Source of the DNA: Heterodontus francisci
Taxonomy: Eukaryota
Direction of reading: 5' to 3'
DNA length: 64,000 nt
Assembly: GCF_036365525.1 (NCBI RefSeq)
Contig: NC_090404.1
Span: forward strand, 8,680,001 to 8,744,000
Below are positions 5,572-46,410 of the stretch, in pieces. Numbering within the stretch: position 1 is the first letter of the stretch; each line of letters opens with the position of its first letter. The notes beneath the pieces were generated by a model, which saw only the letters and a list, made by a program, of their open reading frames with translations, did not search any database and had not been told where the DNA came from. The position numbers and the translations under genes are program-made.

Positions 5572-5611
5572 CACACTGCTGCAGAGATACAGCAGATCCC
5601 GAACAAAAACC
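5572..5611 (+). other. RSS of copy 1, representative of all 16: CACACTG, 24 bp, ACAAAAACC
   Basis: Heptamer 5572-5578, nonamer 5603-5611. Confidence 0.9.
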
Positions 5612-5634
5612 CACACTGAGAGTTCCAGTTAGCG

Positions 5635-5649
5635 CTCACCAGAGGGCGC
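5635..5649 (+). promoter_or_regulatory. RSS-adjacent CTCF-like motif, present in all 16 units
   Basis: CTCACCAGAGGGCGC 23 bp after the nonamer. Confidence 0.75.
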
Positions 5650-6018
5650 GCTTCCACCGAGAAACAGAAACAATAATTCAGCCTCCACAATGAGTCACAG
5701 GGAGATTCTTAAAACTGCGACAGAGCACAAACCTCAACAACAGGCGAGGTGCACTTGTGCAGTTATCTTAGTCTGTGACTACAACTTGCATTTATCGTTA
5801 AAAAATGAGCTTTACAAATCGAAGTCAGCTATCTTTACTCACCTTTTATCTTTCGATGCTCTTTCCCTGCCTCCTTGTTCCTGTCACACCCTGTCTCTAC
5901 ACTTGACCCAGTACTGTATACATTTCCTTCTTGCAGTCTTTAGTTTACAAATATAAATCTTTACTAAATTTCGGTACGTTAATTCAGAGCCATTCCAACC
6001 CAGATGCCCACTAATTCA

Positions 6019-7223
6019 AAGAACAAAGATCAAAGAACAGTACAGCACAGGAACAGGCCATTCGGCCCTCCAAGCCTGCGCCGATCTTGATGCCTGCCTA
6101 AACTAAAACCTTCTGCACTTCCGGGCACCATATCCCTCTATTCCCATCCTAATCATGTATTTGTCAAGATGCCTCTTAAACGTCATTATCGTAACTGCTT
6201 CCACCACCTCCCCCGGCAGCAAGCTCCAGGCACTCACCACCCTCTGTGTAAAGAACTTGCCTCGCACATCCCCTCTAAACTTTGCCCCTCGCACCTTAAA
6301 CCTATGTCCCCTAGTAACTGACTCCTCCACCCTGGGAAAAAGCTTCTGACGATCCATTCTGTCCATGCCGCTCATAACTTTGTAAACCTCTATCACGTCA
6401 CCCCTCCACCTCCGTCGTTCCAGTGAAAATAATACGAGTTTATCCAACCTCTCCTCATAACTGATGCCCTCCAGACCAGGCAACATCCTGGTAAACCTCT
6501 TCTGTACCCTCTCCAAAGCCTCCACGTCTTTCTGGTAGTGTGGCGACCAGAATTGCACGCAATATTCCAAGTGTTGCCTAAGTAAGGTTCTGTACAGCTG
6601 CAACATGACTTGCCTATTTTTATACTCTATGCCCCGACCGATGAAGGCAAGCATGCCGTATGCCTTCTTGCCTACCTTATCCACCTGCGTTGCCACTTTC
6701 AGTGACCTGTCGACCTGTACGCCCAGATCTCTTTGCCTGTCAATAATCCTAAGGGTTCTGCCATTTTCTGTATACTTCCCACCTGCATTAGATCTTCCAA
6801 AATGCATTACCTCACATTTGTCCGGATTAAACTCCATCTGCCATTTCTCCGCCCAAGTCTCCAACCAATCTATTTCCTGCTGTACCCTCTGACAATCCTC
6901 ATCACTGTCTGCAACTCCACCAACCTTTGTGTCGTCTGCAAACTTACTAATCAGACCAGCTACATTTTCCTCCAAATCATTTATTTATACGACAAAGAGC
7001 AAAGGTCCCAGCACTGATCCCTGCGGAACACCACTAGTCACATCACTCCATTCAGAAAAGCACCCTTCCACTGCTACCCTCTGTCTTCTATAACAGAGCC
7101 AGTTCTGTATCCATCTTGCCAGCTCACCTCTGATCTCGTGTGACTTCACCTTTTGTACCAGTCTGCCATGAGGGACCTTGTCAAAGGCTTTACTAAAGTC
7201 CAGATAGATAACATCCACTGCAC
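6019..7223 (-). mobile_element. 5'-truncated CR1 LINE, unit 1
   Basis: RT motifs DFSKAFDKVPH, GVPQGSVLGP, KFADD; repeated tail (AAAGAAC on +). Confidence 0.95.
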
Positions 7224-7423
7224 AGATTCAGCGCTGGTTTAAACCGACTTCACTGATGATTCACTTATTATTGACTAACATAATAGTCCTGATTATCCTG
7301 TCCCGAACCTGCCTTCCTGCAATATGTAATGGATGGGAAAGTGCCGCAGCTCTTATAGAAAGGCAGAGTTGTAGTATTTTCGACAGAGACATTAATATTT
7401 AATTCCGTTCCTTCCAAGTGGAT

Positions 7424-7631
7424 ATTCCACGTGACAACACTGCCTGCGGCAGCCCCGCCCACAGTTTCCGTTTGCTGCTCTCGCTCTGACCCAATTTTGT
7501 TATTGGAGGGATTGCTGCCGCGGGTCCATTCTTCTCATTGGTTGGATCAGCAGTGCAGTGGGACGGGGATCTGTATTTCTGCTCCGACAGAGAGTTTCCT
7601 GCACTGCAGAGTTACAGATTCAGGAAGTATC
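7424..7631 (+). promoter_or_regulatory. V promoter of copies 2-16 (representative)
   Basis: E-box CACGTGAC, GC box GCCCCGCCC, ATTGG (reverse CCAAT), ETS-type CAGGAAGT just before the ATG. Confidence 0.6.
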
Positions 7632-8131
7632 ATGGGGAACCGTCTCTCACCGCTTCTCATCTTTCTCTCACTTCTCAGTAAGTATTTCCTTCCCAGTAAA
7701 AATCCATTCTCCCCCTGCTGCATTCTAGATGTTATTGTTGGTAAAATAATAGTGATGGTGATGGTGACTGTTATGTCAATCAATATGAGGAAAATTCTGA
7801 TTGCTGATATTACTATTTTTCTGTTAGAATGGAGCCACCAAGACACAGTGGAACAGTCGGTTGCTGAAAGAACGGTTGAAAAGGGATCGAAAGTCACACT
7901 AACCTGCACCTTGAAAACAAGCGATTCGAACTCTTATGTGTACTGGTACAGTCAGCACCCCGGGCAGCCTCCACACAACATACTTCGTCTTATTGGAGGG
8001 AATCTATACAGGAACACCGGCATCACTGTTCGGTTCTCGGCTGCGTTTAATAAAACTGCCAAGATGACTGAGCTAACGGTCAGCAACACCCTGATTTCCG
8101 ACAGCGCCGTGTATTTCTGTGCCATGAGCCC
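7632..8131 (+). CDS. TCR V segment copy 2 (L 7632-7677, V 7828-8131)
   Basis: Open V exon; GTAAGT/AG splice sites; RSS 8132-8171 with nonamer GCAAAAACC. Confidence 0.92.
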
Positions 8132-8580
8132 CACACTGCTGCAGAGATCTAGCAGATCCTGTGCAAAAACCCACACTGAGAGTTCCAGTTAGCGCTCACC
8201 AGAGGGCGCGCTTGGACCGATAAACAGAAACAATAATTCAGCCTCCACAGTGAGAGACACAGAGAGACTCTTAAAACTGCGACAGAGCACAAACCTCAAC
8301 AACAGGCGAGGTCCACTTGTGCAGTTATCTTAGTCTGTGACTACAACTTGCATTTATCGTTAAAAAATGAACTTTACAAATCGAAGTCAGCGATCTTTAC
8401 TCACCTTTTATCTTTCGATGCTCTTTCCCTGCCGACTTGTTCCTGTCACACCCTGTCTCTACACTTGACCCAGTATTGTATACATTTCCTTCTTACAGTC
8501 TTTAGTTTACAAATATAAATCTTTACTAAATTTCGGTACGTTAATTCAGAACCATTCCAACCCAGATGCCCACTGATTCA

Positions 8581-9785
8581 AAGAACAAAGATCAAAGAAC
8601 AGTACAGCACAGGAACAGGCCATTCGGCCCTCCAAGCCTGCACCGATCTTGATGCCTGTCTAAACTAAAACCTTCTGCATTTCCGGGCACCATATCCCTC
8701 TATTCCCATCCTAATCATGTATTTGTCAAGATGCCTCTTGAACGTCGCTATCGTACCTGCTTCCACCACCTCTCCCGGCAGCAAGTTCCAGGCACTCACC
8801 ACCCTCTGTGTAAAGAACTTGCCTCGCACATCCCCTCTAAACTTTGCCCTTCGCGCCTTAAACCTATGTCCCCTAGTAACTGACTCCTCCACCCTGGGAA
8901 AAAGCTTCTGACTATCCACTCTGTCCATGCCGCTCATAACTTTGCCAACCTCTATCATGTCGCCCCTCCACCTCCGTCGTTCCAGTGAAAACAATCTGAG
9001 TTTATCCGACCTCTCCTCATAGCTGATGCCCTCCAGACCAGGCAATATCCTGGTAAACATCTTCTGTACCCTCTCCAAAGCCTCCACGTCCTTCTGGTAG
9101 TGTGGCGACCAGAATTGCACGCAATATTCCAAGTGTGGCCTAAGTAAGGTTCTGTACAGCTGCAACATGACTTGCCTATTTTTATACTCTATGCCCCGAC
9201 CGATGAAGGCAAGCATGCCGTATGCCTTCTTGCCTACCTTATCCACCTGCGTTGCCACTTTCAGTGACCTGTAGACCTGTACGCCCAGATCTCTCTGCCT
9301 GTCAATACTCCTAAGGGTTCTGCCATTTTCTGTATACTTCCCACCTGCATTAGATCTTCCAAAATGCATTACCTCACATTTGTCCGGATTAAACTCCATC
9401 TGCCATTTCTCCGCCCAAGTCTCCAACCAATCTATTTCCTGCTGTACCCTCTGACAATCCTCATCACTGTCTGCAACTCCACCAACCTTTGTGTCGTCTG
9501 CAAACTTACTAATCAGACCAGCTACATTTTCCTCCAAATCATTTATTTATACGACAAAGAGCAAAGGTCCCAGCACTGATCCCTGCGGAACACCACTAGT
9601 CACATCACTCCATTCAGAAAAGCACCCTTCCATTGCTACCCTCTGTCTTCTATGACAGAGCCAGTTCTGGATCCATCTTGCCAGCTCACCTCTGATCTCG
9701 TGTGACTTCACCTTTTGTACCAGTCTGCCATGAGGGACCTTGTCAAAGGCTTTACTGAAGTCCATATAGATAACATCCACTGCCC
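8581..9785 (-). mobile_element. Truncated CR1, unit 2
   Basis: RT ORF remnant; GATTCA on both flanks. Confidence 0.95.
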
Positions 9786-10193
9786 AGATTCAGCGCTGGT
9801 TTAAACCGACTTCACTGATGATTCACTTATTATTGACTAACATAATAGTCCTGATAATCCTGTCCCGAACCTGCCTTCCTGAAATATGTAATGGAAGGGA
9901 AAGTGCCGCAGCTCTTATAGAAAGGCAGAGTTGTAGTATTTTCGAAAGAGACATTAATATTTAATTCCGTTCCTTACAAGTGGATATTCCACGTGACAAC
10001 ACTGCCTGCGGCAGCCACGCCCACAGTTTCCGTTTGCTGCTCTCGCTCTGACCCAATTTTGTTATTGGAGGGATTGCTGCCGCGGGTCCATTCTTCTCAT
10101 TGGTTGGATCAGCAGTGCAGTGGGACGGGGATCTGCATTTCTGCTCCGACAGAGAGTTTCCTGCACTGCAGAGTTACAGATTCAGGAAGTATC

Positions 10194-10693
10194 ATGGGGA
10201 ACCGTCTCTCACCGCTTCTCATCATTATATCACTTCTCAGTAAGTATTTCCTTCCCAGTAAAAATCCATTCTCCCCCTGCTGCATTCTAGATGTTATTGT
10301 TGGTAAAATAATAGTGATGGTGATGGTGACTGTTATGTCAATCAATATGAGGCAAATTCTGATTGCTGATATTACTATTTTTCTGTTAGAATGGAGCCAC
10401 CAAGACACAGTGGAACAGTCGGTTGCTGAAAGAACGGTTGAAAAGGGATCGAAAGTCACACTAACTTGCACCTTGAAAACAAGGGATTCGAACTCTTATG
10501 TGTACTGGTACAGTCAGCGCCCCGGGCAGCCTCCACACAACATACTTCGTCTTATTGGAGGGAATCTATACAGGAACACCGGCATCACTGTTCGGTTCTC
10601 GGCTACGTTTAATAAAACTGCCAAGATTACCGAGCTAACGGTCAGCAACACCCTGATCTCCGACAGCGCCGTGTATTTCTGTGCCATGAGCCC
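10194..10693 (+). CDS. TCR V segment copy 3
   Basis: Open L and V; CDR1 region TRDSNSY; RSS follows. Confidence 0.92.
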
Positions 10694-11140
10694 CACACTG
10701 CTGCAGAGATCTAGGAGATCCTGCACAAAAACCCACACCGAGAGTTCCAGTTAGCGCTCACCAGAGGGCGCGCTTGCACCGATAAACAGAAACAATAATT
10801 CAGCCTCCACAGTGAGAGACAGAGAGATTCTTAAAACTGCGACAGAGCACAAACCTCAACAACAGGCGAGGTGCACTTGTGCAGTTATCTGAGTCTGTGA
10901 CTACAACTTGCATTTATCGTTAAAAAATGAACTTTACAAATCGAAGTCAGCGATCTTTACTCACCTTTTATCTTTCGATGCTCTTTCCCTGCCTACTTGT
11001 TCCTGTCACACCCTGTCTCGACACTTGACCCAGTATTGTATACATTTCCTTCTTACAGTCTTTAGTTTACAAATATAAATCTTTACTAAATTTCGGTACG
11101 TTAATTCAGAACCATTCCAACCCAGATGCCCACTGATTCA

Positions 11141-12345
11141 AAGAACAAAGATCAAAGAACAGTACAGCACAGGAACAGGCCATTCGGCCCTCCAAGCCTG
11201 CACCGATCTTGATGCCTGTCTAAACTAAAACCTTCTGCATTTCCGGGCACCATATCCCTCTATTCCCATCCTAATCATGTATTTGTCAAGATGCCTCTTG
11301 AACGTCGCTATCGTACCTGCTTCCACCACCTCTCCCGGCAGCAAGTTCCAGGCACTCACCACCCTCTGTGTAAAGAACTTGCCTCTCACATCCCCTCTAA
11401 ACTTTGCCCTTCGCGCCTTAAACCTATGTCCCCTAGTAACTGACTCCTCCACCCTGGGAAAAAGCTTCTGACTATCCACTCTGTCCATGCCGCTCATAAC
11501 TTTGCCAACCTCTATCATGTCGCCCCTCCACCTCCGTCGTTAAAGTGAAAACAATCTGAGTTTATCCGACCTCTCCTCATAGCTGATGCCCTCCAGACCA
11601 GGCAATATCCTGGTAAACATCTTCTGTACCCTCTCCAAAGCCTCCACGTCCTTCTGGTAGTGTGGCGACCAGAATTGCACGCAATATTCCAAGTGTGGCC
11701 TAAGTACGGTTCTGCACAGCTGCAACATGACTTGCCTATTTTTATACTCTATGCCCCGACCGATGAAGGCAAGCATGCCGTATGCCTTCTTGCCTACCTT
11801 ATCCACCTGCGTTGCCACTTTCAGTGACCTGTAGACCTGTACGCCCAGATCTCTCTGCCTGTCAATACTCCTAAGGGTTCTGCCATTTTCTGTATACTTC
11901 CCACCTGCATTAGATCTTCCAAAATGCATTACCTCACATTTGTCCGGATTAAACTCCATCTGCCATTTCTCCGCCCAAGTCTCCAACCGATCTATATCCT
12001 GCTGTATCCTCTGACAATCCTCATCACTGTCTGCAACTCCACCAACCTTTGTGTCGTCTGCAAACTTACTAATCAGACCAGCTACAGTTTCCTCCAAATC
12101 ATTTATTTATACGACAAAGAGCAAAGGTCCCAGCACTGATCCCTGCGGAACACCACTAGTCACATCACTCCATTCAGAAAAGCACCCTTCCACTGCTACC
12201 CTCTGTCTTCTATAACAGAGCCAGTTCTGTATCCATCTTGCCAGGTCACCTCTGATCTCGTGCGACTTCACCTTTTGTACCAATCTGCCATGAGGGACCT
12301 TGTCAAAGGCTTTACTAAAGTCCATATAGATAACAACCACTGCCC
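11141..12345 (-). mobile_element. Truncated CR1, unit 3
   Basis: RT remnant with an extra stop. Confidence 0.95.
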
Positions 12346-12753
12346 AGATTCAGCGCTGGTTTAAACCGACTTCACTGATGATTCACTTATTATTGACTAA
12401 CATAATAGTCCTGATTATCCTGTCCCGAACCTGCCTTCCTGCAATATGTAATGGGTGGGAAAGTGCCGCAGCTCTTATAGAAAGGCAGAGTTGTAGTATT
12501 TTCGAAAGAGACATTAATATTTAATTCCGTTCTTTACAAGTGGATATTCCACGTGACAACACTGCCTGCGGCAGCCCCGCCCACAGTTTCCGTTTGCTGC
12601 TCTCGCTCTGGCCCAATTTTGTTATTGGAGGGATTGCTGCCGCGGGTCCATTCTTCTCATTGGTTGCATCAGCAATGTAGTGGGACGGGGATCTGTATTT
12701 CTGCTCCGACAGAGAGTTTCCTGCACTGCAGAGTTACAGATTCAGGAAGTATC

Positions 12754-13253
12754 ATGGGGAACCGTCTCTCACCGCTTCTCATCTTTCTATCACTTCTCAG
12801 TAAGTATTTCCTTCCCAGTAAAAATCCATTCTCCCCCTGCTGCATTCTAGATGTTATTGTTGGTAAAATAATAGTGATGGTGATGGTGACTGTTATGTCA
12901 ATCAATATGAGGAAAATTCTGATTGCTGATATTACTATTTTTCTGTTAGAATGGAGCCACCAAGACACAGTGGAACAGTCGGTTGCTGAAAGAACGGTTG
13001 AAAAGGGATCGAAAGTCACACTAACCTGCACCTTGAAAACAAGCGATTCGAACCCTTATGTGTACTGGTACAGTCAGCACCCCGGGCTGCCTCCACACAA
13101 CATACTTCGTCTTATTGGAGGGAATCTATACAGGAACACGGGCATCACTGTTCGGTTCTCGGCTACGTTTAATAAAACTGCCAAGATTACCGAGCTAACG
13201 GTCAGCAACACCCTGATCTCCGACAGCGCCGTGTATTTCTGTGCCATGAGCCC
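12754..13253 (+). CDS. TCR V segment copy 4
   Basis: Open L and V; nonamer has lost one A (ACAAAACCC). Confidence 0.9.
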
Positions 13254-13701
13254 CACACTGCTGCAGAGATCTAGCAGATCCTGCACAAAACCCACACCGA
13301 GAGTTCCAGTTAGCGCTCACCAGAGGGCGCGCTTCCACCGATAAACAGAAACAATAATTCAGCCTCCACAGTGAGAGTCACAGAGAGATTCTTAAAGCTG
13401 CGACAGAGCACAAACCTCAACAACAGGCGAGGTGCACTTGTGCAGTTATCTTAGTCTGTGACTACAACTTGCATTTATCGTTAAAAAATGAACTTTACAA
13501 ATCGAAGTCAGCGATCTTTACTCACCTTTTATCTTTCGATGCTCTTTCCCTGCCTACTTGTTCCTGTCACACCCTGTGTCTACACTTGACCCAGTATTGT
13601 ATACATTTCCTTCTTACAGTCTTTAGTTTACAAATATAAATCTTTACTAAATTTCGGTACGTTAATTCAGAACCATTCCAACCCAGATGCCCACTGATTC
13701 A

Positions 13702-14906
13702 AAGAACAAAGATCAAAGAACAGTACAGCACAGGAACAGGCCATTCGGCCCTCCAAGCCTGCACCGATCTTGATGCCTGCCTAAACTAAAACCTTCTGCA
13801 TTTCCGGGCACCATATCCCTCTATTCCCATCCTAATCATGTATTTGTCAAGATGCCTCTTGAACGTCGCTATCGTACCTGCTTCCACCACCTCTCCCGGC
13901 AGCATGTTCCAGGCACTCACCACCCTTTGTGTAAAGAACTTGCCTCGCACATCCCCTCTAAACTTTGCCCCTCGCACCTTAAACCTATGTCCCCTAGTAA
14001 CTGACTCCTCCACCCTGGGAAAAAGCTTCTGACTATCCACTCTGTCCATGCCGCTCATAACTTTGTAAACCTCTATCACGTCACCCCTCCACCTCCGTCG
14101 TTCCAGTGAAAACAATCCGAGTTTATCCAACCTCTCCTCATAGCTGATGCCCTCCAGACCAGGCAATATCCTGGTAAACATCTTCTGTACCCTCTCCAAA
14201 GCCTCCACGTCCTTCTGGTAGTGTGGCGACCAGAATTGCACGCAATATTCCAAGTGTGGCCTAAGTAAGGTTCTGTACAGCTGCAACATGACTTGCCTAT
14301 TTTTATACTCTATGCCCCGACCGATGAAGGCAAGCATGCCGTATGCCTTCTTGCCTACCTTATCCACCTGCGTTGCCACTTTCAGTGACCTGTGGACCTG
14401 TACGCCCAGATCTCTCTGCCTGTCAATACTCCTAAGGGTTCTGCCATTTACTGTATACTTCCCACCTGCATTAGATCTTCCAAAATGCATTACTTTACAT
14501 TTGTCCGGATTAAACTCCATCTGCCATTTCTCCGCCCAAGTCTCCAACCGATCTATTTCCTGCTGTTTCCTCTGACAATCCTCATCACTGTCTGCAACTC
14601 CACCAACCTTTGTGTCGTCTGCAAACTTACTAATCAGACCAGCTACATTTTCCTCCAAATCATTTATTTATCCGACAAAGAGCAAAGGTCCCAGCACTGA
14701 TCCCTGCGGAACACCACTAGTCACATCACTCCATTCAGAAAAGCACCCTTCCACTGCTACCCTCTGTCTTCTATAACAGAGCCAGTTCTGTATCCATCTT
14801 GCCAGCTCACCTCTGATCTCGTGTGACTTCACCTTTTGTACCAATCTGCCATGAGGGACCTTGTCAAAGGCTTTACTAAAGTCCATATAGATAACATCCA
14901 CTGCCC
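13702..14906 (-). mobile_element. Truncated CR1, unit 4
   Basis: RT remnant. Confidence 0.95.
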
Positions 14907-15314
14907 AGATTCAGCGCTGGTTTAAACCGACTTCACTGATGATTCACTTATTATTGACTAACATAATAGTCCTGATTATCCTGTCCCGAACCTGCCTTCC
15001 TACAATATGTAATGGATGGGAAAGTGCCGCAGCTCTTATAGAAAGGCAGAGTTGTAGTATTTTCGAAAGAGACATTAATATTTAATTCCGTTCTTTACAA
15101 GTGGATATTCCACGTGACAACACTGCCTGCGGCAGCCCCGCCCACAGTTTCCGTTTGCTGCTCTCGCTCTGACCCAATTTTGTTATTGAAGCGATTGCTG
15201 CCGCGGGTCCATTCTTCTCATTGGTTGGATCAGCATTGCAGTGGGACGGGGATCTGTATTTCTGCTCCGACAGAGAGTTTCCTGCACTGCAGAGTTACAG
15301 ATTCAGGAAGTATC

Positions 15315-15814
15315 ATGGGGAACCGTCTCTCACCGCTTCTCATCTTTCTATCACTTCTCAGTAAGTATTTCCTTCCCAGTAAAAATCCATTCTCCCCCTG
15401 CTGCATTCTAGACGTTATTGTTGGTAAAATAATAGTGATGGTGATGGTGACTGTTATGTCAATCAATATGAGGAAAATTCTGATTGCTGATATTACTATT
15501 TTTCTGTTAGAATGGAGCCACCAAGACACAGTGGAACAGTCGGTTGCTGAAAGAACGGTTGAAAAGGGATCGAAAGTCACTCTCACCTGCACCTTGAAAA
15601 CAAGCGATTCGAACCCTTATGTGTACTGGTACAGTCAGCACCCCGGGCAGCCTCCACACAACATACTTCGTCTTATTGGAGGGAATCTATACAGGAACAC
15701 CGGCATCACTGTTCGGTTCTCGGCTACGTTTAATAAAACTGCCAAGATTACCGAGCTAACGGTCAGCAACACCCTGATCTCCGACAGCGCCGTGTATTTC
15801 TGTGCCATGAGCCC
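15315..15814 (+). CDS. TCR V segment copy 5
   Basis: Open L and V; RSS follows. Confidence 0.92.
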
Positions 15815-16264
15815 CACACTGCTGCAGAGATCTAGCAGATCCTGTACAAAAACCCACACTGAGAGTTCCAGTTAGCGCTCACCAGAGGGCGCGCTTGCAC
15901 CGATAAACAGAAACAATAATTCAGCCTCCACAGTGAGAGACACAGAGAGATTCTTAAAACTGCGACAGAGCACAAACCTCAACAACAGGCGAGGTCCACT
16001 TGTGCAGTTATCTTAGTCTGTGACTACAACTTGCATTTATCATTAAAAAAATGAGCTTTACAAATCGAAGTCAGCGATCTTTACTCACCTTTTATCTTTC
16101 GATGCTCTTTCCCTGCCTACTTGTTCCTGTCACACCCTGTCTCGACACTTGACCCAGTATTGTATACATTTCCTTCTTACAGTCTTTAGTTTACAAATAT
16201 AAATCTTTACTAAATTTCGGTACGTTAATTCAGAACCATTCCAACCCAGATGCCCACTGATTCA

Positions 16265-33744: not shown

Positions 33745-34191
33745 CACACTGCTGCAGAGATCGAGCAGATCCTGTACAAAAACCCACACCGAGAGTTCCA
33801 GTTAGCGCTCACCAGAGGGCGCGCTTGCACCGATAAACAGAAACAATAATTCAGCCTCCACAGTGAGAGACAGAGAGATTCTTAAAACTGCGACAGAGCA
33901 CAAACCTCAACAACAGGCGAGGTGCACTTGTGCAGTTATCTTAGTCTGTGACTACAACTTGCATTTATCGTTAAAAAATGAACTTTACAAATCGAAGTCA
34001 GCGATCTTTGCTCACCTTTTATCTTTCGATGCTCTTTCCCTGCCTACTTGTTCCTGTCACACCCTGTCTCGACACTTGACCCAGTATTGTATACATTTCC
34101 TTCTTACAGTCTTTAGTTTACAAATATAAATCTTTACTAAATTTCGGTACGTTAATTCAGAACCATTCCAACCCAGATGCCCACTGATTCA

Positions 34192-35396
34192 AAGAACAAA
34201 GATCAAAGAACAGTACAGCACAGGAACAGGCCATTCGGCCCTCCAAGCCTGCACCGATCTTGATGCCTGTCTAAACTAAAACCTTCTGCATTTCCGGGCA
34301 CCATATCCCTCTATTCCCATCCTAATCATGTATTTGTCAAGATGCCTCTTGAACGTCGCTATCGTACCTGCTTCCACCACCTCTCCCGGCAGCAAGTTCC
34401 AGGCACTCACCACCCTCTGTGTAAAGAACGTGCCTCGCACATCCCCTCTAAACTTTGCCCCTCGCACCTTAAACCTATGTCACCTAGTAACTGACTCCTC
34501 CACCCTGGGAAAAAGCTTCTGACTATCCACTCTGTCCATGCCGCTCATAACTTTGCAAACCTCTATCACGTCACCCCTCCACCTCCGTCGTTCCAGTGAA
34601 AACAATCCGAGTTTATCCAACCTCTCCTCATAGCTGATGCCCTCCAGACCAGGCAACATCCTGGTAAACATCTTCTGTACCCTCTCCAAAGCCTCCACGT
34701 CCTTCTGGTAGTGTGGCGACCAAAATTGCACGCAATATTCCAAGTGTGGCCTAAGTACGGTTTTGTACAGCTGCAACATGACTTGCCTATTTTTATACTC
34801 TATGCCCCGACCGATGAAGGCAAGCATGCCGTATGCCTTCTTGCCTACCTTATCCACCTGCGTTGCCACTTTCAGTGACCTGTAGACCTGTATGCCCAGA
34901 TCTCTCTGCCTGTCAATACTCCTAAGGGTTCTGCCATTTTCTGTATACTTCCCACCTGCATTAGATCTTCCAAAATGCATTACCTCACATTTGTCCGGAT
35001 TAAACTCCATCTGCCATTTCTCCGCCCAAGTCTCCAACCGATCTATATCCTGCTGTATCCTCTGACAATCCTCATCACTGTCTGCAACTCCACCAACCTT
35101 TGTGTCGTCTGCAAACTTACTAATCAGACCAGCTACATTTTCCTCCAAATCATTTATTTATACGACAAAGAGCAAAGGTCCCAGCACTGATCCCTGCGGA
35201 ACACCACTAGTCACATCACTCCATTCAGAAAAGCACCCTTCCACTGCTACCCTCTGTCTTCTATAACAGAGCCAGTTCTGTATCCATCTTGCCAGGTCAC
35301 CTCTGATCTCGTGTGACTTCACCTTTTGTACCAATCTGCCATGAGGGACCTTGTCAAAGGCTTTACTAAAGTCCATATAGTTAACATCCACTGCCC
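34192..35396 (-). mobile_element. Truncated CR1, unit 12
   Basis: RT remnant. Confidence 0.95.
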
Positions 35397-35804
35397 AGAT
35401 TCAGCGCTGGTTTAAACCGACTTCACTGATGATTCACTTATTATTGACTAACATAATAGTCCTGATTATCCTGTCCCGAACCTGCCTTCCTGCAATATGT
35501 AATGGATGGGAAAGTGCCGCAGCTCTTATAGAAAGGCAGAGTTGTAGTATTTTCGAAAGAGACATTAATATTTAATTCCGTTCCTTCCAAGTGGATATTC
35601 CACGTGACAACACTGCCTGCGGCAGCCCCGCCCACAGTTTCCGTTTGCTGCTCTCGCTCTGACCCAATTTTGTTATTGGAGGGATTGCTGCCGCGGGTCC
35701 ATTCTTCTCATTGGTTGCATCAGCAGTGCAGTGGGACGGGGATCTGTATTTCTGCTCCGACAGAGAGTTTCCTGCACTGCAGAGTTACAGATTCAGGAAG
35801 TATC

Positions 35805-36304
35805 ATGGGGAACCGTCTCTCACCGCTTCTCATCTTTCTCTCACTTCTCAGTAAGTATTTCCTTCCCAGTAAAAATCCATTCTCCCCCTGCTGCATTCTA
35901 GATGTTATTGTTGGTAAAATAATAGTGATGGTGATGGTGACTGTTATGTCAATCAATATGAGGAAAATTCTGATTGCTGATATTACTATTTTTCTGTTAG
36001 AATGGAGCCACCAAGACACAGTGGAACAGTCGGTTGCTGAAAGAACGGTTGAAAAGGGATCGAAAGTCACACTAACCTGCACCTTGAAAACAAGCGATTC
36101 GAACCCTTATGTGTACTGGGACAGTCAGCACCCCGGGCAGCCTCCACACAACATACTTCGTCTTATTGGAGGGAATCTATACAGGAACACGGGCATCACT
36201 GTTCGGTTCTCGGCTACGTTTAATAAAACTGCCAAGATTACCGAGCTAACGGTCAGCAACACCCTGATCTCCGACAGCGCCGTGTATTTCTGTGCCATGA
36301 GCCC
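35805..36304 (+). CDS. TCR V segment copy 13 (WY changed to WD)
   Basis: Open L and V; FR2 Tyr replaced by Asp. Confidence 0.85.
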
Positions 36305-36753
36305 CACACTGCTGCAGAGATCTAGCAGATCCTGTACAAAAACCCACACTGAGAGTTCCAGTTAGCGCTCACCAGAGGGCGCGCTTCCACCGATAAACAG
36401 AAACAATAATTCAGACTCCACAGTGAGAGTCACAGAGAGATTCTTAAAACTGCGACAGAGCACAAACCTCAACAACAGGCGAGGTGCACTTGTGCAGTTA
36501 TCTTAGTCTGTGACTACAACTTGCATTTATCGTTAAAAAATGAACTTTACAAATCGAGGTCAGCGATCTTTACTCACCTTTTATCTTTCGATGCTCTTTC
36601 CCTGCCTACTTGTTCCTGTCACACCCTGTCTCGACACTTGACCCAGTATTGTATACATTTCCTTCTTACAGTCTTTAGTTTACAAATATAAATCTTTACT
36701 AAATTTCGGTACGTTAATTCAGAACCATTCCAACCCAGATGCCCACTGATTCA

Positions 36754-37958
36754 AAGAACAAAGATCAAAGAACAGTACAGCACAGGAACAGGCCATTCGG
36801 CCCTCCAAGCCTGCACCGATCTTGATGCCTGCCTAAACTAAAACCTTCTGCATTTCCGGGCACCATATCCCTCTATTCCCATCCTAATCATGTATTTGTC
36901 AAGATGCCTCTTGAACGTCGCTATCGTACCTGCTTCCACCACCTCTCCCGGCAGCAAGTTCCAGGCACTCACCACCCTCTGTGTAAAGAACTTGCCTCGC
37001 ACATCCCCTCTAAACTTTGCCCCTCGCACCTTAAACCTATGTCCCCTAGTAACTGACTCCTCCACCCTGGGAAAAAGCTTCTGACTATCCACTCTGTCCA
37101 TGCCACTCATAACTTTGTAAACCTCTATCACGTCACCCCTCCACCTCCGTCGTTCCAGTGAAAACAATCCGAGTTTATCCAACCTCTCCTCATAGCTGAT
37201 GCCCTCCAGACCAGGCAATATCCTGGTAAACATCTTCTGTACCCTCTCCAAAGCCTCCACGTCCTTCTGGTAGTGTGGCGACCAGAATTGCACGCAATAT
37301 TCCAAGTGTGGCCTAAGTAAGGTTCTGTACAGCTGCAACATGACTTGCCTATTTTTATACTCTATGCCCCGACCGATGAAGGCAAGCATGCCGTATGCCT
37401 TCTTGCCTACCTTATCCACCTGCGTTGCCACTTTCAGTGACCTGTGGACATGTACGCCCAGATCTCTCTGCCTGTCAATACTCCTAAGGGTTCTGCCATT
37501 TACTGTATACTTCCCACCTGCATTAGATCTTCCAAAATGCATTACCTCACATTTGTCCGGATTAAACTCCATCTGCCATTTCTCCGCCCAAGTCTCCAAC
37601 CGATCTATTTCCTGCTGTACCCTCTGACAATCCTCATCACTGTCTGCAACTCCACCAACCTTTGTGTCGTCCGCAAACTTACTAATCAGACCAGCTACAT
37701 TTTCCTCCAAATCATTTATTTATACGACAAAGAGCAAAGGTCCCAGCACTGATCCCTGCGGAACACCACTGGTCACATCACTCCATTCAGAAAAGCACCC
37801 TTCCACTGCTACCCTCTGTCTTCTATAACAGAGCCAGTTCTGTATCCATCTTGCCAGCTCACCTCTGATCTCGTGTGACTTCACCTTTTGTACCAATCTG
37901 CCATGAGGGACCTTGTCAAAGGCTTTACTAAAGTCCATATAGATAACATCCACTGCCC
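36754..37958 (-). mobile_element. Truncated CR1, unit 13
   Basis: RT remnant. Confidence 0.95.
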
Positions 37959-38366
37959 AGATTCAGCGCTGGTTTAAACCGACTTCACTGATGATTCACT
38001 TATTATTGACTAACATAATAGTCCTGATTATCCTGTCCCGAACCTGCCTTCCTACAATATGTAATGGATGGGAAAGTGCCGCAGCTCTTATAGAAAGGCA
38101 GAGTTGTAGTATTTTCGACAGAGACATTAATATTTAATTCCGTTCCTTCCAAGTGGATATTCCACGTGACAACACTGCCTGCGGCAGCCCCGCCCACAGT
38201 TTCCGTTTGCTGCTCTCGCTCTGACCCAATTTTGTTATTGGAGGGATTGCTGCCGCGGGTCCATTCTTCTCATTGGTTGGATCAGCAGTGCAGTGGGACG
38301 GGGATCTGTATTTCTGCTCCGACAGAGAGTTTCCTGCACTGCAGAGTTACAGATTCAGGAAGTATC

Positions 38367-38866
38367 ATGGGGAACCGTCTCTCACCGCTTCTCATCTTTC
38401 TATCACTTCTCAGTAAGTATTTCCTTCCCAGTAAAAATCCATTCTCCCCCTGCTGCATTCTAGATGTTATTGTTGGTAAAATAATAGTGATGGTGATGGT
38501 GACTGTTATGTCAATCAATATGAGGCAAATTCTGATTGCTGATATTACTATTTTTCTGTTAGAATGGAGCCACCAAGACACAGTGGAACAGTCGGTTGCT
38601 GAAAGAACGGTTGAAAAGGGATCGAAAGTCACACTAACCTGCACCTTGAAAACAAGCGATTCGAACCCTTATGTGTACTGGGACAGTCAGCGCCCCGGGC
38701 AGCCTCCACACAACATACTTCGTCTTATTGTAGGGAATCTATACAGGAACACGGGCATAACTGTTCGGTTCTCGGCTACGTTTAATAAAACTGCCAAGAT
38801 TACCGAGCTAACGGTCAGCAACACCCTGATCTCCGACAGCGCCGTGTATTTCTGTGCCATGAGCCC
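38367..38866 (+). CDS. TCR V segment copy 14 (WY changed to WD)
   Basis: Open L and V; nonamer ACAGAAACC. Confidence 0.85.
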
Positions 38867-39316
38867 CACACTACTGCAGAGATATCGCAGATCCCGGACA
38901 GAAACCCACACTGAGAGTTCCAGTTAGCGCTCACCAGAGGGCGCGCTTGCACCGATAAACAGAAACAATAATTCAGCCTCCACTGTGAGAGACACAGAGA
39001 GATTCTTAAAACTGCGACAGAGCACAAACCTCAACAACAGGCGAGGTCCACTTGTGCAGTTATCTTAGTCTGTGACTACAACTTGCATTTATCATTAAAA
39101 AAATGAACTTTACAAATCGAAGTCAGCGATCTTTACTCACCTTTTATCTTTCGATGCTCTTTCCCTGCCTACTTGTTCCTGTCACAACCTGTCTCTACAC
39201 TTGACCCAGTATTGTATACATTTCCTTCTTACAGTCTTTAGTTTACAAATATAAATCTTTACTAAATTTCGGTACGTTAATTCAGAACCATTCCAACCCA
39301 GATGCCCACTGATTCA

Positions 39317-40520
39317 AAGAACAAAGATCAAAGAACAGTACAGCACAGGAACAGGCCATTCGGCCCTCCAAGCCTGCGCCGATCTTGATGCCTGCCTAAA
39401 CTAAAACCTTCTGCATTTCCGGGCACCATATCCCTCTATTCCCATCCTAATCATGTATTTGTCAAGATGCCTCTTGAACGTCGCTATCGTACCTGCTTCC
39501 ACCACCTCCCCTGGCAGCAAGTTCCAGGCACTCACCACCCTCTGTGTAAAGAACGTGCCTCGCACATCCCCTCTAAACTTTGCCCCTCGCACCTTAAACC
39601 TATGTCCCCTAGTAACTGCCTCCTCCACCCTGGGAAAAAGCTTCTGACTATCCACTCTGTCCATGCCGCTCATAACTTTGTAAACCTCTATCACGTCACC
39701 CCTCCACCTCCGTCGTTCCAGTGAAAATAATCCGAGTTTATCCAACCTCTCCTCATAACTGATGCCCCCCAGACCAGGCAACATCCTGGTAAACCTCTTC
39801 TGTACCCTCTCCACAGCCTCCACGTCTTTCTGGTAGTGTGGCGACCAGAATTGCACGCAATATTCCAAGTGTGGCCTAAGTAAGGTTCTGTACAGCTGCA
39901 ACATGACTTGCCTATTTTTATACTCTATGCCCGACCGATGAAGGCAAGCATGCCGTATGCCTTCTTGCCTACCTTATCCACCTGCGTTGCCACTTTCAGT
40001 GACCTGTAGACCTGTACGCCCAGATCTCTCTGCCTGTCAATACTCCTAAGGGTTCTGCCATTTACTGTATACTTCCCACCTGCAGTAGATCTTCCAAAAT
40101 GCATTACCTCACATTTGTCCGGATTAAACTCCATCTGCCATTTCTCCGCCCAAGTCTCCAACCAATCTATTTCCTGCTGTATCCTCTGACAATCCTCATC
40201 ACTGTCTGCAACTCCACCAACCTTTGTGTCGTCTGCAAACTTACTAATCAGACCAGCTACATTTTCCTCCAAATCATTTATTTATACGACAAAGAGCAAA
40301 GGTCCCAGCACTGATCCCTGCGGTACACCACTAGTCACATCACTCCATTCAGAAAAGCACCCTTCCACTGCTACCCTCTGTCTTCTATAACAGAGCCAGT
40401 TCTGTATCCATCTTGCCAGCTCACCTCTGATCTCGTGTGACTTCACCTTTTGTACCAGTCTGCCATGAGGGACCTTGTCAAAGGCTTTACTAAATTCCAT
40501 ATAGATAACATCCACTGCCC
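39317..40520 (-). mobile_element. Truncated CR1, unit 14
   Basis: RT remnant with frameshift. Confidence 0.95.
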
Positions 40521-40928
40521 AGATTCAGCGCTGGTTTAAACCGACTTCACTGATGATTCACTTATTATTGACTAACATAATAGTCCTGATTATCCTGTCC
40601 CGAACCTGCCTTCCTGCAATATGTAATGGATGGGAAAGTGCCGCAGCTCTTATAGAAAGGCAGAGTTGTAGTATTTTCGACAGAGACATTAATATTTAAT
40701 TCCGTTCCTTCCAAGTGGATATTCCACGTGACAACACTGCCTGCGGCAGCCCCGCCCACAGTTTCCGTTTGCTGCTCTCGCTCTGACCCAATTTTGTTAT
40801 TGGAGGGATTGCTGCCGCGGGTCCATTCTTCTCATTGGTTGGATCAGCAGTGCAGTGGGACGAGGATCTGTATTTCTGCTCCGACAGAGAGTTTCCTGCA
40901 CTGCAGAGTTACAGATTCAGGAAGTATC

Positions 40929-41428
40929 ATGGGGAACCGTCTCTCACCGCTTCTCATCTTTCTATCACTTCTCAGTAAGTATTTCCTTCCCAGTAAAAAT
41001 CCATTCTCCCCCTGCTGCATTCTAGATGTTATTGTTGGTAAAATAATAGTGATGGTGATGGTGACTGTTATGTCAATCAATATGAGGAAAATTCTGATTG
41101 CTGATATTACTATTTTTCTGTTAGAATGGAGCCACCAAGACAAAGTGGAACAGTCGGTTGCTGAAAGAACGGTTGAAAAGGGATCGAAAGTCACACTAAC
41201 CTGCACCTTGAAAACAAGCGATTCGAACCCTTATGTGTACTGGTACAGTCAGCGCCCCGGGCAGCCTCCACACAACATACTTCGTCTTATTGGAGGGAAT
41301 CTATACAGGAACACGGGCATCACTGTTCGGTTCTCGGCTACGTTTAATAAAACTGCCAAGATTACCGAGCTAACGGTCAGCAACACCCTGATCTCCGACA
41401 GCGCCGTGTATTTCTGTGCCATGAGCCC
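40929..41428 (+). CDS. TCR V segment copy 15
   Basis: Open L and V; heptamer CACATTG. Confidence 0.9.
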
Positions 41429-41877
41429 CACATTGCTGCAGAGATATAGCAGATCCCGTACAAAAACCCACACTGAGAGTTCCAGTTTGCGCTCACCAGA
41501 GGGCGCGCTTGCACCGATAAACAGAAACAATAATTCAGACTCCACAGTGAGAGACACAGACAGATTCTTAAAACTGCGACAGAGCACAAAGCTCAACAAC
41601 AGGCGAGGTCCACTTGCGCAGTTATCTTAGTCTGTGACTGCAACTTGCATTTATCGTTAAAAAATGAACTTTACAAATCGAAGTCAGCGATCTTTACTCA
41701 CCTTTTATCTTTCGATGCTCTTTCCCTGCCTACTTGTTCCTGTCACACCCTGTCTCTACACTTGACCCAGTATTGTATACATTTCCTTCTTACAGTCTTC
41801 AGTTTACAAATATAAATCTTTACTAAATTTCGGTACGTTAATTCAGAACCATTCCAACCCAGATGCCCACTGATTCA

Positions 41878-43082
41878 AAGAACAAAGATCAAAGAACAGT
41901 ACAGCACAGGAACAGGCCATTCGGCCCTCCAAGCCTGCGCCGATCTTGATGCCTGCCTAAACTAAAACCTTCTGCACTTCCGGGCACCATATCCCTCTAT
42001 TCCCATCCTAATCATGTGTTTGTCAAGATGCCTCTTGAACGTCATTATCGTACCTGCTTCCACCACCTCCCCCGGCAGCAAGTTCCAGGCACTCACCACC
42101 CTCTGTGCAAAAGAACTTGCCTCGCACATTCCCTCTAAACTTTGCCCCTCGCACCTTAAACCTATATCCCCTAGTAACTGACTCCTCCACCCTGGGAAAA
42201 AGCTTCTGACTATCCACTCTGTCCATGCCGCTCATAACTTTGTAAACCTCTATCACGTCACCCCTCCACCTCCGTCGTTCCAGTGAAAATAATCCGAGTT
42301 TATCCAACCTCTCCTCATAGCTGATGCCCTCCAGACCAGGCAATATCCTGGTAAACATCTTCTGCACCCTCTCCAAAACCTCCACGTCCTTCTGGTAGTG
42401 TGGCGACCAGAATTGCACGCAATATTCCAAGTGTGGCCTAAGTAAGGTACTGTACAGCTGCAACATGACTTGCCTATTTTTATACTCTATGCCCCGACCG
42501 ATGAAGGCAAGCATGCCGTATGCCTTCTTGCCTACCTTATCCACCTGCGTTGCCACTTTCAGTGACCTGTAGACCTGTACGCCCAGATCTCTCTGCCTGT
42601 CAATACTCCTAAGGGTTCTGCCATTTACTGTATACCTCCCACCTGCATTAGATCTTCCAAAATGCATTACCTCACATTTGTCCGGATTAAACTCCATCTG
42701 CCATTTCTCCGCCCAAGTCTCCAACGATCTATATCCTGCTGTATCCTCTGACAATCCTCATCACTGTCTGCAACTCCACCAACCTTTGTGTCGTCTGCAA
42801 ACTTACTAATCAGACCAGCTACATTTTCCTCCAAATCATTTATTTATACGACAAAGAGCAAAGGTCCCAGCACTGATCCCTGCGGAACACCACTAGTCAC
42901 ATCACTCCATTCAGAAAAGCACCCTTCCACTGCTACCCTCTGTCTTCTATAACAGAGCCAGTTCTGTATCCATCTTGCCAGCTCACCTCTGATCTCGTGT
43001 GACTTCACCTTTTGTACCAGTCTGCCATGAGGGACCTTGTCAAAGGCTTTACTAAAGTCCATATAGATAACATCCACTGCCC
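41878..43082 (-). mobile_element. Truncated CR1, unit 15
   Basis: RT remnant with frameshifts. Confidence 0.95.
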
Positions 43083-43490
43083 AGATTCAGCGCTGGTTTA
43101 AACCGACTTCACTGATGATTCACTTATTATTGACTAACATAATAGTCCTGATAATCCTGTCCCGAACCTGCCTTCCTGCAATATGTAATGGATGGGAAAG
43201 TGCCGCAGCTCTTATAGAAAGGCAGAGTTGTAGTATTTTCGACAGAGACATTAATATTTAATTCCGTTCCTTACAAGTGGATATTCCACGTGACAACACT
43301 GCCTGCGGCAGCCCCGCCCACAGTTTCCGTTTGCTGCTCTCGCTCTGACCCAATTTTGTTATTGGAGGGATTGCTGCCGCGGGTCCATTCTTCTCATTGG
43401 TTGGATCAGCAGTGCAGTGGGACGGGGATCTGTATTTCTGCTCCGACAGAGAGTTTCCTGCACTGCAGAGTTACAGATTCAGGAAGTATC

Positions 43491-43990
43491 ATGGGGAACC
43501 GTCTCTCACCGCTTCTCATCTTTCTATCACTTCTCAGTAAGTATTTCCTTCCCAGTAAAAATCCATTCTCCCCCTGCTGCATTCTAGATGTTATTGTTGG
43601 TAAAATAATAGTGATGGTGATGGTGACTGTTATGTCAATCAATATGAGGAAAATTCTGATTGCTGATATTACTATTTTTCTGTTAGAATGGAGCCACCAA
43701 GACACAGTGGAACAGTCGGTTGCTGAAAGAACGGTTGAAAAGGGATCGAAAGTCACACTAACCTGCACCTTGAAAACAAGCGATTCGAACCCTTATGTGT
43801 ACTGGTACAGTCAGCGCCCCGGGCAGCCTCCACACAACATACTTCGTCTTATTGCAGGGAATGTAAACAGGAACACCGGCATCACTGTTCGGTTCTCGGC
43901 TACGTTTAATAAAACTGCCAAGATCACCGAGCTAACGGTCAGCAACACCCTGATCTCCGACAGCGCCGTGTATTTCTGTGCCATGAGCCC
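43491..43990 (+). CDS. TCR V segment copy 16
   Basis: Open L and V; CDR2 region LIAGNVN. Confidence 0.92.
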
Positions 43991-44440
43991 CACACTGCTG
44001 CAGAGATATCGCAGATCCCGGACAAAAACCCACACTGAGAGTTCCAGTTAGCGCTCACCAGAGGGCGCGCTTGCACCGATAAACAGAAACGATAATTCAG
44101 CCTCCACAGTGAGAGACACAAACAGATTCTTAAAACTGCGACAGAGCACAAACCTCAACAACAAGCGAGGTCCACTTGTGCAGTTATCTTAGTCTGTGAC
44201 TACAACTTGCATTTATCATTAAAAAAATGAACTTTACAAATCGAAGTCAGCGATCTTTACTCACCTTTTATCTTTCAATGCTCTTTCCCTGCCTACTTGT
44301 TCCTGTCACAACCTGTCTCTACACTTGACCCAGTATTGTATACATTTCCTTCTTACAGTCTTTAGTTTACAAATATAAATCTTTACTAAATTTCGGTACG
44401 TTAATTCAGAACCATTCCAACCCAGATGCCCACTGATTCA

Positions 44441-46387: not shown

Positions 46388-46402
46388 CCACCAGAGGGCA
46401 GC
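46388..46402 (+). promoter_or_regulatory. CTCF-like motif
   Basis: CCACCAGAGGGCAGC. Confidence 0.75.
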
Positions 46403-46410
46403 AGATCACC

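Follow-up and report, generated by a model that had tools for sequence, protein, structure and literature searches.

A candidate CTCF-binding element accompanies an atypical RSS in V segments of a shark TCR alpha/delta locus

In a shark TCR alpha/delta locus, an atypical V-segment RSS is followed by a CTCF-type motif, and the CTCF-shaped pattern of constraint on that motif supports the view that it is under selection. We infer from sequence that the motif is a CTCF-binding element (CBE), and we tentatively favor a reading in which weak RSS and motif together form a portable 3' cassette taken up by two V families. The cassette is repeated in a 16-unit array within the window (the whole stretch of DNA that was analysed, 64,000 nucleotides, whose coordinates are used below), and the main support for it comes from outside that window. 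As read from its orientation, the array points away from its joining genes and its motif cannot act by the simple mouse mechanism. Although it resembles the RSS-associated CBEs of mouse, the array's motif may act only once an earlier inversion flips the array.

Each array unit carries, in order, a leader, an intron, a TCR alpha/delta V exon, an RSS, the CTCF-type motif and a 3' fragment of a LINE reverse transcriptase. The frames are open in all 16 units, which encode 14 distinct V peptides with a V-set Pfam match. This domain together with a 23-type RSS, in a locus with D-delta, J-delta, C-delta, J-alpha and C-alpha (alpha and delta as judged by the layout), identifies the array genes as TCR alpha/delta V segments. 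The features of the array are:

5072..45900 (end approximate), plus strand: the array, 16 tandem units with a period of 2559-2563 bp
7632..7677, plus strand: unit 2 leader exon, 46 nt, followed by intron 7678-7827 (GT..AG)
7828..8131, plus strand: unit 2 V exon, ending YFCAMS
8665..9546, minus strand: unit 2 LINE reverse-transcriptase fragment, a 293-aa open stretch (RVT_1 E=2e-4, below cut-off)
5572..5651, plus strand: unit 1 cassette, with heptamer CACACTG, 24-bp spacer, nonamer, 21-bp linker and 19-bp CTCF match at 5633-5651
8132..8211, plus strand: unit 2 cassette, nonamer GCAAAAACC, motif at 8193-8211
10694..10773, plus strand: unit 3 cassette
13254..13332, plus strand: unit 4 cassette, A-run shorter by one base
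15815..15894, plus strand: unit 5 cassette
18378..18457, plus strand: unit 6 cassette
20938..21017, plus strand: unit 7 cassette
23500..23579, plus strand: unit 8 cassette
26059..26138, plus strand: unit 9 cassette
28619..28698, plus strand: unit 10 cassette
31182..31261, plus strand: unit 11 cassette
33745..33824, plus strand: unit 12 cassette
36305..36384, plus strand: unit 13 cassette
38867..38946, plus strand: unit 14 cassette, heptamer CACACTA, nonamer ACAGAAACC, motif intact
41429..41508, plus strand: unit 15 cassette, heptamer CACATTG
43991..44070, plus strand: unit 16 cassette

The LINE piece of unit 2, which we take to be CR1-type, was found in the other array units read and sits where some family members carry a second, stronger CTCF site. 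In run X5, which we guess to be RNA, the leader is spliced from 7677 to 7828, and the V-exon contig lies 6 letters from unit 2, within the 5-10 letters that separate array units from unit 2, the nearest minus-strand copy being 24 letters away; these contigs reveal neither expression level nor ends. A longer-protein search for a full-length TCR chain returned a single mis-predicted protein.

As the first-pass annotation had stated, CTCACCAGAGGGCGC follows the nonamer in all 16 units and is also intact at 1248 in a pseudogene with a destroyed RSS. The match is exact and on the V strand throughout the array, starting 23 bp past the nonamer in 15 units and 22 bp past it in unit 4; it is exact at 1248 too, where the heptamer is degraded and the nonamer deleted. 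Because the array units are recent copies (93-99.5% identical), presence in 16 of 16 counts once, and we discarded the count as evidence. The 19-mer CTCF match starts 21 bp after the nonamer. A matrix scan against shuffled background, which the annotation had put forward as a check, gave a qualified answer: the 19-mer passes the core-matrix threshold at 14.8 bits (relative score 0.886, p=3.6e-6; JASPAR MA0139.1 matrix), which is moderate rather than strong. When one 2.56-kb unit was dinucleotide-shuffled 1000 times, 21 shuffles scored as high, and position 4 of the 19-mer is T instead of C. The annotation further read T(C/G)CAGT as standing at CTCF upstream-motif spacing, which did not hold. 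The 15-bp core is preceded by TCCAG at a distance of 7 bp, equivalent to a linker of 0, as opposed to 12 bp in the IL3 insulator oligo and a linker range of 2-7 bp (PMC12885311). At the canonical 6-bp linker, the sequence matches the ZF9-11 motif, which defines an optional subclass, at 6 of 10 positions only and without TGC. Calibration on 48 upstream-motif matches in the genome gave an ambiguous pattern, with a 6-bp gap in 25 (22 from one repeat), 12-13 bp in 17 (14 of them related copies on the contig that carries the locus, C34) and 7 bp in one; a literature search on the upstream motif found nothing.

Across the locus, about 40 V copies dispersed over 10 Mb carry the RSS-plus-motif cassette. 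A nonamer-plus-motif pattern has 30 matches in 6.0 Gb, all of them at 3.8-13.9 Mb of C34, and a control pattern has 0. When cassette V were defined by a CBE-independent pattern, a CTCF site of at least 12 bits lay within 100 bp in 31 of 31, compared with 0 of 46 other V (best score 5.6). In all 31 the site is on the V strand (opposite in 0), at the roughly 20-100 bp 3' of the V RSS expected of an Igh-type CBE. Contigs of organisms B, C and D span the V end to the motif at 80% or more (in organism B the motif is visible in a loose end). In small samples of TCR gamma-like V (4 of 15 listed) and beta-like V (5 of 7 listed) we found no site of at least 10 bits within 400 bp downstream. Between V families A and B, similarity is 40-60% in exon and leader but 82-96% in the 100 bp that begin at the heptamer.

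The RSS of these genes is itself unusual. Its spacer in the array is 24 bp rather than 23, which had been overlooked, and its heptamer is CACACTG in 14 of 16 units. The 24-bp spacer is found in 28 of 31 cassette V and 0 of 46 other V, and the CACACTG heptamer also in five other V without a CBE; the correlation between RSS type and CBE amounts in essence to a single evolutionary contrast. A 24-bp spacer would be expected to weaken the RSS; our literature search on such spacers found nothing. A weak, atypical RSS (non-consensus by sequence) next to the motif would resemble the weak-RSS-plus-CBE design of mouse.

Selection on the motif is suggested by a comparison of disjoint pairs of RSS-intact extant copies, in which 2 of 87 high-information motif sites differ compared with 154 of 825 flank sites (P=7e-6); of 41 copies, 2 had no alignable exon and were left out, and the V-exon rates mix families A and B and were not used as a clock. 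Among 39 copies, positions 5, 9 and 12-15 are invariant, position 7 swaps C and G freely (25/14) as the matrix permits, and the motif CpG is kept in 36, compared with 17, 23 and 25 for flank CpGs. Constraint is thus focused on the high-information columns, as expected of a CTCF-type site. Spacer positions 1-9 and linker positions 1-13 are conserved too, so a second factor may account for part of the constraint. A neutral simulation (mean 2.4 of 27 tips kept, 26 observed) was set aside, its branch lengths being inflated by poorly aligned flank.

The array lies on the plus strand at 8.69-8.72 Mb, 5.4 Mb from D-J-C. The 113 J segments that we found at 3.19-3.34 Mb, with D and both C exons (C-alpha/C-delta1), are all on the minus strand; the locus holds 94 J-alpha-like segments. 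The array would consequently join by inversion, with motifs facing away from J-C, and the germline deletional, convergent RSS of the Igh type is absent from it. A plus-strand D-J-C-delta2 lies left of the array with divergent RSSs, and a search of C34 to its right, by exact patterns and best candidates only, found no deletional J, D or C partner. Near the J-C end, a 42-bp minisatellite located 17-33 kb 3' of C-alpha contains 40 plus-strand CTCF matches (40 of 387 units score at least 14; the commonest unit scores 8.3), and one plus-strand, V-facing site lies between C-delta and J-alpha, the position of the TEA CBE in mouse Tcra/Tcrd, a locus of the same type. Array motifs, TEA-position site and minisatellite sites all share the plus strand, so that the array does not face the J-C anchors.

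The cassette nevertheless resembles that of mouse proximal Igh VH segments (VH81X/VH5-2, VHQ52.2.4/VH2-2), in which a CBE within about 20 bp 3' of the V RSS has the same V-relative direction, accompanies a non-optimal RSS and is limited to particular V families. It differs in belonging to TCR alpha/delta, in its 24-bp spacer, in its tandem amplification, and in being kept in pseudogenes and inversional 5.4 Mb from J; all mouse VH CBEs face D-J-C. In mouse Trav, CBEs lie mostly upstream of promoters with 129 of 144 facing J-C, and RSS-adjacent ones are not listed. The proposal of an equivalent V-RSS-CBE unit in a cartilaginous-fish TCR locus accordingly holds for V-relative orientation, distance and constraint, and fails for the geometry of scanning from J. 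Since inversion nearly abolishes VH use in mouse Igh (10.1101/2020.06.30.181222), primary linear RAG scanning cannot be the array's germline mechanism. Likewise, the 16 tandem extrusion impediments that had been envisaged would impede extrusion from the distal side only and not from J, so any boundary would be one-sided.

We propose, with reservations, that the orientation-locked cassette becomes scannable, and convergent with the minisatellite CTCF sites, after a prior inversional join. The motif would have been selected as a CTCF-binding element paired with a weak, non-canonical RSS. Because it is locked to V orientation, it would be convergent on the J-C-end sites exactly when its RSS is deletional to J. 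Minus-strand cassette copies would have this state in the germline, while for the plus-strand array a primary inversional join would have to come first, made by a V lying further distal or by a distal array unit. Such a join would flip the intervening DNA and leave the flipped units just upstream of the VJ exon, where cohesin-driven RAG scanning may pause at them during secondary V-alpha/J-alpha rounds, with pausing at the CTCF site compensating for the weak RSS. Array V would then be expected mostly in secondary joins, on alleles already inverted. In mouse, weak proximal VH RSSs rely on CBEs within 20 bp (PMC11153149) and primary inversional V-kappa joins set upstream V deletional for secondary linear scanning (PMC13190342); in skate, TADs follow a CTCF orientation code (PMC10115646). 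The locus has mixed V orientation and multiple J for successive joins, as does mouse Ig-kappa with its two phases (diffusional joins first, then linear scanning once inversion has turned V blocks deletional), though Ig-kappa has 4 J and this locus 94 J-alpha-like segments. Several points count against the proposal, among them the moderate motif score, the T at position 4, the off-spacing upstream motif, the low scores of most minisatellite units, the single evolutionary contrast behind the RSS-CBE correlation, and the motif's persistence beside dead RSSs described below. In the CBE-comparison sample, 15 of 19 non-array cassette V are plus-strand and 4 are deletional to J in the germline, so most copies would need a prior inversion, and Ig-kappa secondary joining is dominated by strong RSSs (PMC13190342).

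A rather doubtful alternative is that the CBE is an orientation-tolerant pause or anchor, which holds the V near a J-side anchor for inversional synapsis by RAG in primary rearrangement, as at Ig-kappa and Trbv1. About half of the sampled V are inverted (25 plus and 21 minus among non-cassette V), so the locus must permit inversion, and the array-type plus-strand V is spliced in presumed RNA. V-kappa CBEs work as dynamic impediments whichever way they point (PMC11153149), inversional joins need CTCF barriers (PMC12820099), and Trbv1, a TCR V with a nearby downstream CBE that promotes its use, tolerates RSS inversion (PMC10772921), making orientation-independent synapsis possible. However, diffusional Ig-kappa joining requires strong RSSs, which V-kappa genes have, and the array's RSS is non-consensus. 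The CBEs of V-kappa lie between genes, and their direction bears no relation to that of the V (PMC5859386), whereas here the two are locked. We found no Cer/Sis-like cluster of at least 14 bits at 3.30-3.38 Mb, only three scattered sites at 3.38-3.45 Mb. Trbv1 stands alone at the distal end and its CBE converges on the recombination center, unlike the 16 tandem non-convergent copies here.

It is unlikely that the CBE is purely architectural, dividing the 10-Mb V region into loops, with its amplification a one-sided barrier near the midpoint and its nearness to the RSS historical. Outside the array, the window also has these elements:

697..1264, plus strand: pseudogene of the family with 2 stops and a deleted nonamer; its motif, at 1246-1264, is intact (15.0 bits)
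1710..1728, plus strand: second, stronger CTCF match (23.6 bits), about 460 bp beyond the pseudogene's first motif
46385..46403, plus strand: CTCF match at the array's distal edge (20.9 bits), oriented as the array motifs
46766..47270, minus strand: intact J-facing V of another family, canonical CACAGTG-23-ACAAAAACT, without RSS-adjacent motif
48451..48990, minus strand: 3' piece of a LINE-split inverted family pseudogene, heptamer GACAGTG, RSS-adjacent motif decayed (2.4 bits)
48451-48469: second CTCF site of that inverted pseudogene, strong (24.0 bits)

Of 17 RSS-dead copies, 15 keep the motif at 12 bits or more, one of them despite deletion of the entire RSS. RSS-dead pairs differ at 1 of 56 motif sites compared with 90 of 513, along paths that include time with the gene still working; motifs kept beside dead RSSs point to a role untied from the adjacent RSS. 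Mouse proximal pseudogenes, in contrast, are without CBEs (PMC7930373). The window presents 16 tandem plus-strand sites plus the one at 46385, with the nearest minus-strand sites at 4026 and 48469, and four other CTCF matches in it score 20.9-24.0. The array is close to the V span midpoint at about 8.63 Mb (from the 100 of 501 V matches listed), and an engineered inverted 20-CBE array in mouse VH changed loops (PMC7930373). That array, with the Igh 3'CBE superanchor, parallels the inverted mid-V array and the V-facing cluster 3' of the constant gene; the shark ones, made of predicted CTCF sites, differ as natural tandem repeats (2.56-kb V unit; 42-bp minisatellite). Against a purely architectural role, the nonamer distance is fixed across two V families, stronger second sites of the type at 1710..1728 have been lost from the array units, and insulating CBEs usually have the upstream motif. 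In the six-copy clade sharing a nonamer deletion, which includes the pseudogene at 697..1264 and diverged once the nonamer was gone, 0 of 8 high-information sites vary; exon sites vary at about 24%, a difference that falls short of significance by itself.

It is improbable that another factor binds the block, or that gene conversion of V 3' ends conserves it, the CTCF match being incidental. The shuffle result, the T at position 4 conserved in 36 of 39 copies, the conserved adjoining blocks and the movement of the 3' module between families would fit such a reading, but variation follows the CTCF matrix column by column, with the invariant positions and the C/G swap at position 7 noted above, and gene conversion would not spare just those columns. 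Most improbable is an assembly error hiding an array that truly faces J and acts as first annotated: single N-free stretches contain V in alternating orientation (a minus-strand V lies 2.8 kb past unit 16), plus-strand cassette copies extend from 3.84 to 13.89 Mb, and the search to the right of the array, by exact patterns and best candidates, found no partner.

Mechanistic work that we found on CBE-guided V(D)J recombination is from mouse only. A literature search on CTCF or locus orientation in shark antigen-receptor loci, with most subscription papers outside its coverage, found no description of such elements; shark locus papers beyond that coverage may already show V orientation. An RSS-CBE cassette under selection in the TCR locus of an elasmobranch would bear on when CBE-tuned RAG targeting arose, and the array bears on whether a CBE aids a wrong-facing V and on the effect of a natural mid-V inverted CBE array. 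Extending the inversion-dependent proposal, we raise the somewhat doubtful idea of two V classes, one with strong RSSs and no CBE for orientation-free primary capture and one with weak RSSs and an inversion-activated CTCF cassette, the array serving as a V-alpha revision stockpile scanned from a minisatellite superanchor. If this were true, CBE-tuned RAG scanning would either date back to the jawed vertebrates or beyond, or have two separate origins, and Igh and Ig-kappa logic would be combined within one locus. The minisatellite is locus-specific and shares a 10-bp word with the cassette.

Each of the 16 units of the array (2559–2563 bp) carries a leader, an open-frame V exon, an RSS and a CTCF-type motif, and the units that were read also contain a LINE fragment. 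The array RSS has the heptamer CACACTG and a 24-bp spacer, a spacer length that goes with reduced activity. As stated in the first-pass annotation, the motif is found in every unit: its 15-mer is exact in 16/16, beginning 23 bp beyond the nonamer in all units but one, where the distance is 22 bp, and it is also exact at window 1248. Because the units are 93–99.5% identical to one another, this presence counts as one observation. The annotation as a whole was only partly borne out. Against the MA0139.1 CTCF matrix the motif scored 14.8 bits (p = 3.6e-6), but this score was reached in 21 of 1000 shuffled units and four other sites within the window exceed it; of sites with at least 14 bits, 2 were counted in a 60-kb control stretch and none in 60 kb on the flanks of the window. 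The claim that an upstream motif occurs at the CTCF spacing did not hold, as it sits 7 bp from the core compared with 12 bp in the IL3 oligo described in excerpts of PMC12885311. A closely spaced convergent pair of CTCF matches immediately precedes unit 1, in the vicinity of decayed remnants of V, at window 3907–3925 (plus strand, 16.7 bits) and 4008–4026 (minus strand, 23.6 bits).

A pattern combining nonamer and motif has 30 matches in the 6.0-Gb genome, all at 3.8–13.9 Mb of the contig that holds the array, C34, on which the window takes up positions 8680001–8744000; a control pattern has none. A V-RSS pattern blind to the motif gave at least 78 matches on C34, with 77 in the C34 sequence analysed. 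One V exon of C34 recurs without a mismatch, over 100 residues, in a protein labelled Heterodontus francisci (horn shark). The motif is confined to cassette-type V and goes with an RSS type of its own: a same-strand site of at least 12 bits lies within 100 bp in 31/31 cassette-type V, and such a site was found on either strand within that distance in 0 of the 46 other V; the RSS spacer is 24 bp in 28/31 of the former and 23 bp in 46/46 of the latter. In a second motif-independent set, 26/27 copies scored at least 12 bits. There are two cassette V families, the second being of a GEDSVSQDP type (C34 3.84–13.89 Mb) with an exon ∼50% identical to that of the array family. Their 3′ ends are 82–96% alike over the first 100 bp from the heptamer despite exons and leaders that are 40–60% alike, which indicates that the cassette has moved between V families as a module. 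Four V ending in YYCARE, presumably IgH-like by this motif, alternate in orientation inside the TCR V region at C34 6.70–6.73 Mb, and none of the four has an RSS-adjacent motif. Tail-to-tail V pairs, whose facing RSSs are 340–670 bp apart, each have a CTCF match (13.6–25.6 bits) 750–890 bp upstream of the nonamer, resembling mammalian Trav promoter CBEs. At C34 4057475–4817776, a CTCF site preceded by TGCAG 13 bp before its core recurs ten times at intervals of ∼75 kb, which points to an extensive tandem duplication close to the proximal V region.

Orientations follow the forward-motif convention for CTCF, in agreement with PMC12885311. The minus strand carries every J, D and C element found in the 200 kb at C34 3.18–3.38 Mb: 94 segments of J-alpha-like type, 19 of J-delta-like type, a single D and two C exons. 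The array is on the plus strand, and its RSSs are therefore inversional relative to the main J-C and its motifs face away from J-C. It is separated from J by 5.4 Mb and sits roughly midway along the V span. C-alpha is single on C34; an identical second C-alpha exon on a small contig (C1869:26766–27032) is probably a haplotype duplicate. Placed back to back with the main one, a second D-J-C-delta cluster occupies the plus strand (C34 3443338–3460470). It is an ancient inverted copy of the TCR delta D-J-C, with ∼80% DNA identity to the main cluster and an open-frame C exon of 58% protein identity. As it lies left of the array with divergent RSSs, a coding joint would, from RSS geometry, land on the excised circle. 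Between C-delta and the first J-alpha, a V-facing plus-strand site (C34 3292036, 16.6 bits) is the only one of at least 14 bits in the 200 kb and has the same position as the mouse TEA CBE. One further element lies at this end:

C34 3150434–3167655: 42-bp minisatellite, ∼410 units, ∼17 kb, 17–33 kb 3′ of C-alpha exon 1

CTCF matches of at least 14 bits occur in 40 of its 387 scored units, all V-facing (plus strand), with the commonest unit scoring 8.3 bits. A motif-bearing 22-mer has 40 genome matches, all in the minisatellite, and the repeat unit has 195, all on one strand, the 100 of these that were listed being at the minisatellite. It resembles the Igh 3′CBE superanchor. A word of 10 bp is common to the minisatellite and the linker of the V cassette; in a post hoc comparison the counts among 2000 shuffles were 0, 19 and 1. 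Relative to the array motifs, the plus-strand sites at this end are arranged in tandem rather than convergently.

The earlier reading of an Igh-equivalent V-RSS-CBE unit stands in part. The cassette shares with the mouse RSS-associated CBE its distance, its direction relative to V and the type of RSS, but departs from an Igh-type impediment in three defining respects: the array RSS is not deletional, its motif does not face J-C, and the motif is also present in pseudogenes. Every bound CBE of mouse VH is directed towards D-J-C (PMC5859386), and use is nearly abolished by VH inversion (10.1101/2020.06.30.181222). The explanation we tentatively prefer is an orientation-locked cassette with a weak RSS that is scannable after a prior inversional join. 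Because an inversion turns the motif along with its RSS, any deletional RSS has its motif convergent with the anchors at J-C. Being inversional in the germline, the array would need a prior inversional join for convergence, and would reach the deletional state only once its units were flipped, placing them just upstream of the VJ exon. Passages of PMC13190342 describe a prior inversional join followed by linear scanning at mouse Ig-kappa, those of PMC11153149 the rescue of weak VH RSSs by CBEs within 20 bp, and those of PMC10115646 skate TADs that follow a CTCF orientation code. CTCF binding to the motif, its effect on V use and the timing of primary and secondary joins are predictions from sequence. 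An inversion-switched revision cassette is possible but doubtful. It is unlikely that the element is instead an orientation-tolerant pause for diffusional inversion, for which parts of PMC10772921 and PMC12820099 may be cited, and rather unlikely that it is an architectural site only (cf. portions of PMC7930373).

The motif itself shows CTCF-shaped constraint. Among 11 disjoint RSS-intact pairs, differences occur at 2/87 high-information motif sites versus 154/825 flank sites (P = 7e-6), and among 7 RSS-dead pairs at 1/56 versus 90/513 (P = 4e-4), with heptamer and nonamer decaying in the latter (8/37 and 9/35 sites differ). Positions 5, 9 and 12–15 are invariant among 39 copies, position 7 alternates between C (25 copies) and G (14), and the CpG inside the motif is kept in 36/39, with three flank CpGs kept in 17, 23 and 25. 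Against CTCF-shaped constraint, position 4 is T in 36/39 copies, two blocks adjoining the motif are likewise conserved, the motif is lost in 2/17 RSS-dead copies, and only one clade is certain to have diverged once the RSS had been lost, its size being insufficient for significance. We consider it improbable that the conserved block is not CTCF-related, and mis-assembly of the array orientation highly improbable. The two conserved blocks near the motif are the opening 9 bases of the spacer and the opening 13 of the linker (window 8139–8147 and 8172–8184, and in each unit), kept even in RSS-dead copies. This linker start holds a second CACACTG directly after the nonamer, and one cassette copy has the whole RSS deleted between the two CACACTG repeats.

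Contigs from three other organisms cover the stretch from V end to motif, at 80% or better, and among the 40 of 236 differences listed, the ones closest to the motif hit its final low-information position or lie right after it. The motif is visible in the loose end of one run from another organism. The literature searched, which is incomplete in coverage, yielded no prior description of such elements in sharks, and CTCF is mentioned 0 times in the portion of PMC12227049 consulted. A sequencing run that we guess to be RNA contains the spliced leader joint and attests the presence, and presence only, of array-type V: a contig spanning the V exon has 6 differences from unit 2, which places it closer to the plus-strand copies (5–10) than to any on the minus strand (at least 24). 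No V-J junction was seen in the contigs of this run. Beyond the array, the window also holds an exon encoding 11 C2H2 zinc fingers (60645–61715, minus strand) and a purine-rich repeat (55667–56581).
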